Below are positions 23,108 to 23,426 of a stretch of 64,000 nt of DNA, piece by piece. The stretch lies in the NCBI RefSeq assembly GCF_003334315.1, contig NZ_QOWR01000022.1; one strand, 5' to 3'. Within the stretch, counting starts at the first letter, position 1. Each line of letters starts with the position of its first letter. This DNA is from Escherichia coli (GTDB lineage: Bacteria; Pseudomonadota; Gammaproteobacteria; Enterobacterales; Enterobacteriaceae). The notes under the pieces were generated by a model, which was not told the DNA's origin, did not search any database, and saw nothing but the letters and a program-made list of their open reading frames with translations. The position numbers were made by a program, and so were the translations under genes.

Positions 23108-23426
23108 TGAGCTTTCATCCTATGAAATTAATTGCTGTTAAAAGCATTGGGTACAGAAAATACCCATAGCTCCATACCCGGAGTCAGTTTTTAAAAACTG
23201 TTTAAAGAAATGCACAAGTATTGTGATTGATTTTTTAGTTGTTTTTCTTGATGAGAAGCTGATGCAAAATTCCGTCTTTATAATGAAAATGATGCCAAAG
23301 CGAACGACAAGGTTGTAGTTTTCACTACATGTCCATACATAAAATGGGGTAACATTCACGCGCCTGGTAGCGTTACCAACGCTACGCTCAAACATAATGA
23401 TTCTAATAAAACCTCAGGAGACTACT

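Follow-up and report, generated by a model that had tools for sequence, protein, structure and literature searches.

The DNA analysed here, a stretch of 64,000 nucleotides of Escherichia coli (contig NZ_QOWR01000022.1 of assembly GCF_003334315.1; the window in what follows), carries the gene yejO, which lies between proL and narP and which in strain K-12 is interrupted by a copy of the insertion sequence (IS) IS5. We conclude, with a probability of about 0.9, that the window carries the ordinary ancestral proL–yejO–narP allele with an uninterrupted gene for a type Va autotransporter. This uninterrupted yejO is the allele of most sequenced E. coli, and it is K-12 that is the exception. In K-12 the promoter region upstream of the gene has been kept, but the reading frame of yejO is lost, 67 nt into the coding sequence and within the signal peptide.

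Integrity of yejO and position of IS5 in K-12

The yejO coding sequence occupies positions 20516–23107 on the minus strand and is a complete open reading frame (ORF) of 863 codons followed by a stop codon. The initial annotation had described its product as a complete 863-amino-acid autotransporter with a signal peptide, a passenger and a beta-barrel, and the ORF, the Pfam and TIGR01414 matches and the hydropathy of the N-terminus uphold this description. Codons 1–29 (23021–23107, minus strand, as are all the domains that follow) encode a predicted Sec signal peptide, MHQSGSVSLCR / SAISVLVATALYSPIALA, in which R11 precedes a hydrophobic core at residues 12–28 and an A-L-A motif precedes S30, with predicted cleavage after A29. 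The passenger contains AIDA-type beta-helix repeats over about residues 51–315 (22163–22957), a region that also gave structure matches; the PF16168 repeats are strong at 184–245 and 257–315 (E 1e-21 to 1e-24) and weaker from residue 51, and TIGR04415 repeats, of the heptosylation type, are found in the passenger as well. Its C-terminal end is formed by a Pertactin-like domain (residues 431–555, 21443–21817; PF03212, E 3.2e-45), and the pertactin structure 1dab matches residues 379–558; family knowledge leads us to assume an autochaperone role for this junction domain. The translocator beta-barrel domain spans residues 602–863 (20519–21304). The Autotransporter beta-domain PF03797 is matched at 602–841 (E 2.7e-45), the barrel model TIGR01414 is matched over its full length (2–432 of 432) at residues 456–863, with a score of 372 bits against a cut-off of 16 (E 4.8e-111), and the BrkA translocator structure 3qq2 aligns end to end with residues 582–863. 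The protein ends in VVWTF and thus has the C-terminal aromatic residue typical of outer-membrane proteins. The domain order given by Pfam is AIDA repeats, Pertactin and Autotransporter beta-domain, and all the traits by which a type Va autotransporter is recognized in sequence are present, namely the barrel, the signal peptide, the beta-helical passenger with its junction domain and the C-terminal aromatic residue. YejO of the window is, at the level of sequence, a classical (type Va) autotransporter that resembles AIDA-I and Ag43.

Among solved structures, the nearest in sequence to the passenger are Ag43, an AidA-I family adhesin and TibA; the translocator is closest to Vag8 and BrkA, and the junction to pertactin. 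With AIDA-I, Ag43 and TibA, YejO shares the type Va architecture, the AIDA-type strand-loop-strand repeats, the pertactin-like junction and the C-terminal barrel, but its passenger is shorter. It is a relative of Ag43 rather than a member of that family, as it scores 129 bits against a cut-off of 1200 for the Ag43/Cah equivalog NF033177, and it reaches only 72 bits, against the same cut-off, for the AIDA-I equivalog NF033176. In addition, the AIDA-I type has an adjoining heptosyltransferase gene of the aah/tibC type, whereas the neighbours of yejO are proL and narP. Membership of the YejO orthologue group is clear, the window DNA being 99.9% identical to that of many genomes annotated "yejO: autotransporter YejO", with the same gene order. 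In strain HS30-1, whose locus is 99.9% identical to the window at the DNA level, "autotransporter YejO" (WP_050428462.1) has 863 amino acids, the same synteny and no pseudogene flag, and differs by one residue from the window protein; the two belong to the same allele family with essentially no difference. By analogy with type Va autotransporters in general, the 29-residue signal peptide would take YejO to the periplasm, the C-terminal beta-barrel would insert into the outer membrane, and the repeat-built, beta-helical passenger would be threaded to the surface, where homology suggests that it may act as an adhesin or as a cell–cell aggregation factor. No demonstration of aggregation or adhesion by YejO was found in the literature searched.

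In K-12 MG1655, yejO (b2190, "adhesin-like autotransporter YejO") is annotated as a pseudogene in two pieces, a 67-nt 5' fragment (2290114–2290180) and a 2525-nt 3' fragment (2286390–2288914), around IS5K (2288919–2290113), which carries insH8. The initial annotation had placed the IS5 copy of MG1655 between yejO and narP; IS5K instead interrupts the coding sequence of yejO itself, following nucleotide 67 of the gene, in codon 22/23, and therefore within the signal peptide. Alignment of the window to K-12 gives two BLAST segments that share a 4-nt overlap at 23041–23044, and this overlap is the empty target site, ATAA (TTAT in the sense of the gene, codons L22/Y23). The K-12 junctions read ...TATAA/GGAAGGTGCG... 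and ...CACCTTCC/ATAACGC..., where the slash marks the boundary of the element; K-12 has ATAA-IS5-ATAA, with a 1195-bp IS5K and the two ATAA copies at 5916–5919 and 7115–7118 of the extracted K-12 locus, and the window has a single ATAA. Neither the IS5 ends (GGAAGGTGCG...) nor a duplicated ATAA after nucleotide 67, the marks of the disrupted K-12-type allele, are found in the window. The target sites usually quoted for IS5 are CTAA and CTAG, from which the ATAA duplicated at yejO deviates; instead of the empty CTAA/CTAG site expected in the initial annotation, the target turned out to be this ATAA, which lies in the coding sequence and not in the spacer. On our reading, K-12 gained a 1195-bp IS5 in codon 22/23 with duplication of ATAA, an insertion that kills yejO and does not touch the 319 bp upstream.

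When IS5 and one ATAA are removed from the K-12 sequence, b2190 becomes a full 863-codon ORF in which 2582/2592 coding nucleotides are identical to the window; the 10 nucleotide differences change four amino acids (M87I, V369A, I648F and S820R). Window positions 1–37766 align colinearly, in one segment, to K-12 edited in this way, and the IS5 insertion is the sole structural difference from K-12 at the proL–yejO–narP locus. Upstream of the gene there is no difference at all: narP of MG1655 starts at 2290500, so that the K-12 spacer (2290181–2290499) is also 319 bp long, it is IS-free and shows 0 differences from that of the window, and an MG1655 record is among the 100%-identity matches of a query made with the spacer. 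Because of this identity the window and K-12 do not differ in promoter arrangement. Of the proposal that the window retains an ancestral arrangement relative to K-12, the uninterrupted yejO stands, but the promoter contrast does not, since the MG1655 intergenic region is IS-free too, an outcome that the initial annotation had itself named as speaking against it. The K-12 lesion was already known and published (PMC11005336, PMC11677980): IS5 is listed as a direct-orientation insertion within yejO, downstream of a promoter, PyejO, that is called uncharacterised (PMC11677980), and the Keio yejO mutant of K-12 serves as a "wild-type-like" control, the gene being already dead (PMC11005336).

Frequency of the uninterrupted allele and natural loss of yejO

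The frequency of the alleles was measured in 5426 complete E. coli genomes, a match being counted when at least 80% of the query was covered. A 120-bp query centred on the empty site matches 5050/5426 genomes, and a 120-bp query made of the K-12 yejO/IS5 junction matches 356. The junction carriers among the matches listed (60 of the 356) are all K-12 laboratory strains or genomes of K-12 size, and include MG1655, DH5alpha, C600, J53 and DH1, while genomes with the uninterrupted site include O157:H7, ATCC 25922 and environmental isolates. Since 5050 of the 5426 genomes have an intact site and only 356 have the IS5 junction, the comparison of these sequences indicates that the uninterrupted yejO is almost certainly the ancestral, majority state.

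The two longer queries show how much of the locus is conserved: the 319-bp spacer matches 5354/5426 genomes and the 3.2-kb locus 4282/5426, K-12 derivatives counted in. Most genomes with less than 80% coverage of the 3.2-kb locus span just 44–49% of it. The single low-coverage strain inspected, uropathogenic E. coli (UPEC) 536 of phylogroup B2, has between proL and narP, at the same locus as the window, a yejO remnant that is annotated as frameshifted and incomplete (3213–4101 of the extracted locus), where the window copy is whole. This remnant results from three separate deletions, equivalent to window positions 20546–21174 in the barrel, 21632–22635 in the passenger (about 1 kb) and 23084–23301, the last of which removes the start of yejO, with its ATG, and 194 bp of the spacer before it. 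Other strains with 44–49% coverage, such as Nissle 1917, are probably similar to UPEC 536. The census agrees with the published distribution of the gene, which is reported to be missing from ST131 and present in ST38, ST405 and ST648 (PMC5654935). Close relatives of the window have lost yejO in another way, as NZ_AP021895.1, NZ_AP027721.1 and NZ_CP100876.1, the loci of which are 99.9% identical to the window, carry independent insertions of IS1B or of an IS3-family element in the gene. The independent IS1/IS3 insertions in relatives, together with the UPEC 536 deletions, indicate that yejO has been lost repeatedly; either IS elements target the gene recurrently, or cells tolerate losing it.

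The yejO–narP spacer and the expression of yejO

The spacer between the divergent yejO and narP genes extends exactly from 23108 to 23426, narP starting at 23427, so that the length of 319 bp initially proposed is correct. A search of 23108–23426 for IS ends or a transposase ORF found none, as had also been claimed, and the sole ORF in the spacer is an 85-amino-acid, AT-rich frame without an annotated counterpart in MG1655 or HS30-1. The G+C content is 36%, versus 52% for the window. These 319 bp must hold the promoter of narP as well as that of yejO, which is uncharacterised. A manual hexamer search of the spacer gave one perfect TATAAT, at 23279 in the narP sense, with no usable -35 element, and no convincing yejO promoter; scans for FNR, CRP and NarL 7-2-7 sites gave weak matches only, with 2–4 mismatches, and an Rfam scan of the whole window gave no match in the spacer. 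Two perfect palindromes were found. The first, TGGGTA-N7-TACCCA (23148–23166), lies 41–59 nt ahead of the yejO start codon, contains the single perfect NarL-type heptamer of the spacer (TACCCAT) and is predicted to fold as a hairpin if it is covered by the yejO transcript (z = -2.5, 106-nt stretch). The second, GTAGCGTT-ACC-AACGCTAC (23367–23385), ends 41 nt before the narP ATG. Neither palindrome differs in K-12.

It is about an even bet that yejO, intact as it is in the window, is nevertheless silent, either through nucleoid proteins or for want of an active promoter, and that it causes no phenotypic difference from K-12 in ordinary conditions. The low G+C content of the spacer is in favour of silence, as AT-rich DNA is consistent with silencing by nucleoid proteins, to which cryptic adhesin genes of E. 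coli are typically subject, and K-12 has other autotransporter adhesin genes that remain cryptic when it is cultured in the laboratory. The lack of a sigma-70 consensus match in the spacer and the repeated loss of the gene in nature point in the same direction. In the literature, the promoter is called uncharacterised or putative, and deleting the yejO copy of IS5 left the frequency of IS5 transposition unchanged, which is compatible with little read-through from PyejO (PMC11677980). Against silence, the full-length ORF is kept in roughly 70% of genomes, one transcriptome study reported up-regulation of yejO in an evolved strain (PMC2817434), and about half of healthy people (73/141) have serum antibodies to recombinant YejO (PMC11242715), an observation compatible with natural strains making YejO in the gut. 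On grounds of homology, YejO is probably poorly expressed in the laboratory.

Some of the observations weigh against our preferred reading, in which the window carries the ancestral allele with an uninterrupted type Va autotransporter gene, or against the activity of that gene. The signal peptide was called from hydropathy and by eye. The sigma-70 scan of the spacer gave 0 consensus matches versus 1.5 expected, a result that leaves the gene only potentially expressible. The searchable literature yielded no experimental evidence for the function or expression of YejO, and the serum antibodies might recognize YejO through cross-reaction with other AIDA-type autotransporters. Finally, the recurrence of natural loss, by IS5 in K-12, by IS1 and IS3 elements in relatives and by deletions in UPEC 536, suggests that yejO is dispensable.

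A further proposal, that the spacer couples yejO to nitrate/nitrite or anaerobic signalling, with TGGGTA-N7-TACCCA as a regulator site shared with the control of narP, appears very unlikely to us. It would account for the position of the only perfect TACYYMT heptamer of the spacer within a 6+6 palindrome, 41–59 nt upstream of the yejO ATG, and for the location of yejO, transcribed divergently from narP and close to the nap and ccm operons. However, with 0.61 such heptamers per kb across the window, chance alone would place about 0.2 of them in a 319-bp stretch, and the half-sites of the palindrome are not in the 7-2-7 arrangement of heptamers that NarP needs, the best 7-2-7 matches having 3–4 mismatches. 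No literature support for such a coupling was found. If it were true, an adhesin would be turned on in the inflamed or anoxic gut by those natural E. coli whose yejO is intact, and work with K-12 could not have revealed this control, its yejO being broken.

Lastly, the IS-free state might be secondary, if IS5 was already in yejO of an ancestor shared with K-12 and the lineage of the window then lost the element through precise excision. In favour of this, only one or two positions distinguish the window from MG1655 over its first 17 kb, which makes the strain a close relative of K-12 there, and precise excision would leave exactly one ATAA, as is seen; but precise excision of IS5 is rare, the uninterrupted site is present in 5050/5426 genomes of every kind sampled, the junction is limited to 356 genomes, those listed being all K-12 derivatives or K-12-sized, and the 10 substitutions in yejO mean that the window gene is not simply the K-12 allele minus its IS, so that we rejected this scenario, which is very improbable, as unparsimonious.

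Neighbouring genes, wider window and significance

The divergent neighbour of yejO is narP (23427–24074, plus strand), which encodes the nitrate/nitrite response regulator, as identified from its ORF and from the annotation of matching genomes, and which starts MPEATPFQVMIVDD... On the other side, downstream of yejO and convergent with it, lies proL (20338–20414, plus strand), a tRNA-Pro(GGG) gene found by ARAGORN and Rfam. Between proL and the yejO stop codon, a terminator scan detected a hairpin flanked by A/T runs (20424–20454), which, judging from these features, is likely to be a bidirectional terminator.

The divergence of the window from K-12 is mosaic. The first 20 kb show 0–2 differences per 2 kb, with one mismatch in window positions 1–17126, then 11 per 2 kb at yejO, 105 in the 44–46 kb bin, which contains ompC, and 15–36 per 2 kb in several later bins (52–54 kb and 58–64 kb). 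This pattern suggests recombination blocks in a phylogroup-A-like strain. At the far end of the window, the last 73 bases (63928–64000) align neither with K-12 nor with most genomes, and match strain ES3 exactly. ES3 is 100% identical to the window over 40000–64000 and has the gene of an IS4-like IS421 transposase after a truncated alpha-2-macroglobulin (yfaS) gene, which corresponds to the window ORF 62527–63924. Given the exact match to ES3 over the window end, the window strain therefore has an IS in yfaS, without having the IS5 of K-12 in yejO. The Rfam scan also located the L25 ribosomal-protein leader upstream of rplY (16597–16622) and MicF upstream of ompC (45813–45906). In the eco–mqo spacer (37317–37766), tandem 113-bp units match Rfam naRNA4 (CssrE), in a copy number unlike that of HS30-1 or K-12, and two further naRNA4 (CssrE) copies are present in the rcsB–rcsC spacer (49567–49757).

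In conclusion, K-12 being the exception at the yejO locus, the uninterrupted allele of the window has little significance beyond bookkeeping and its practical value is modest. Because IS5 sits in the signal-peptide codons and not in the promoter region, promoter fusions made in K-12 with the 319-bp spacer would be fully representative of natural strains. For the question of what YejO does, strains with an intact yejO, such as the window strain, are the right background.
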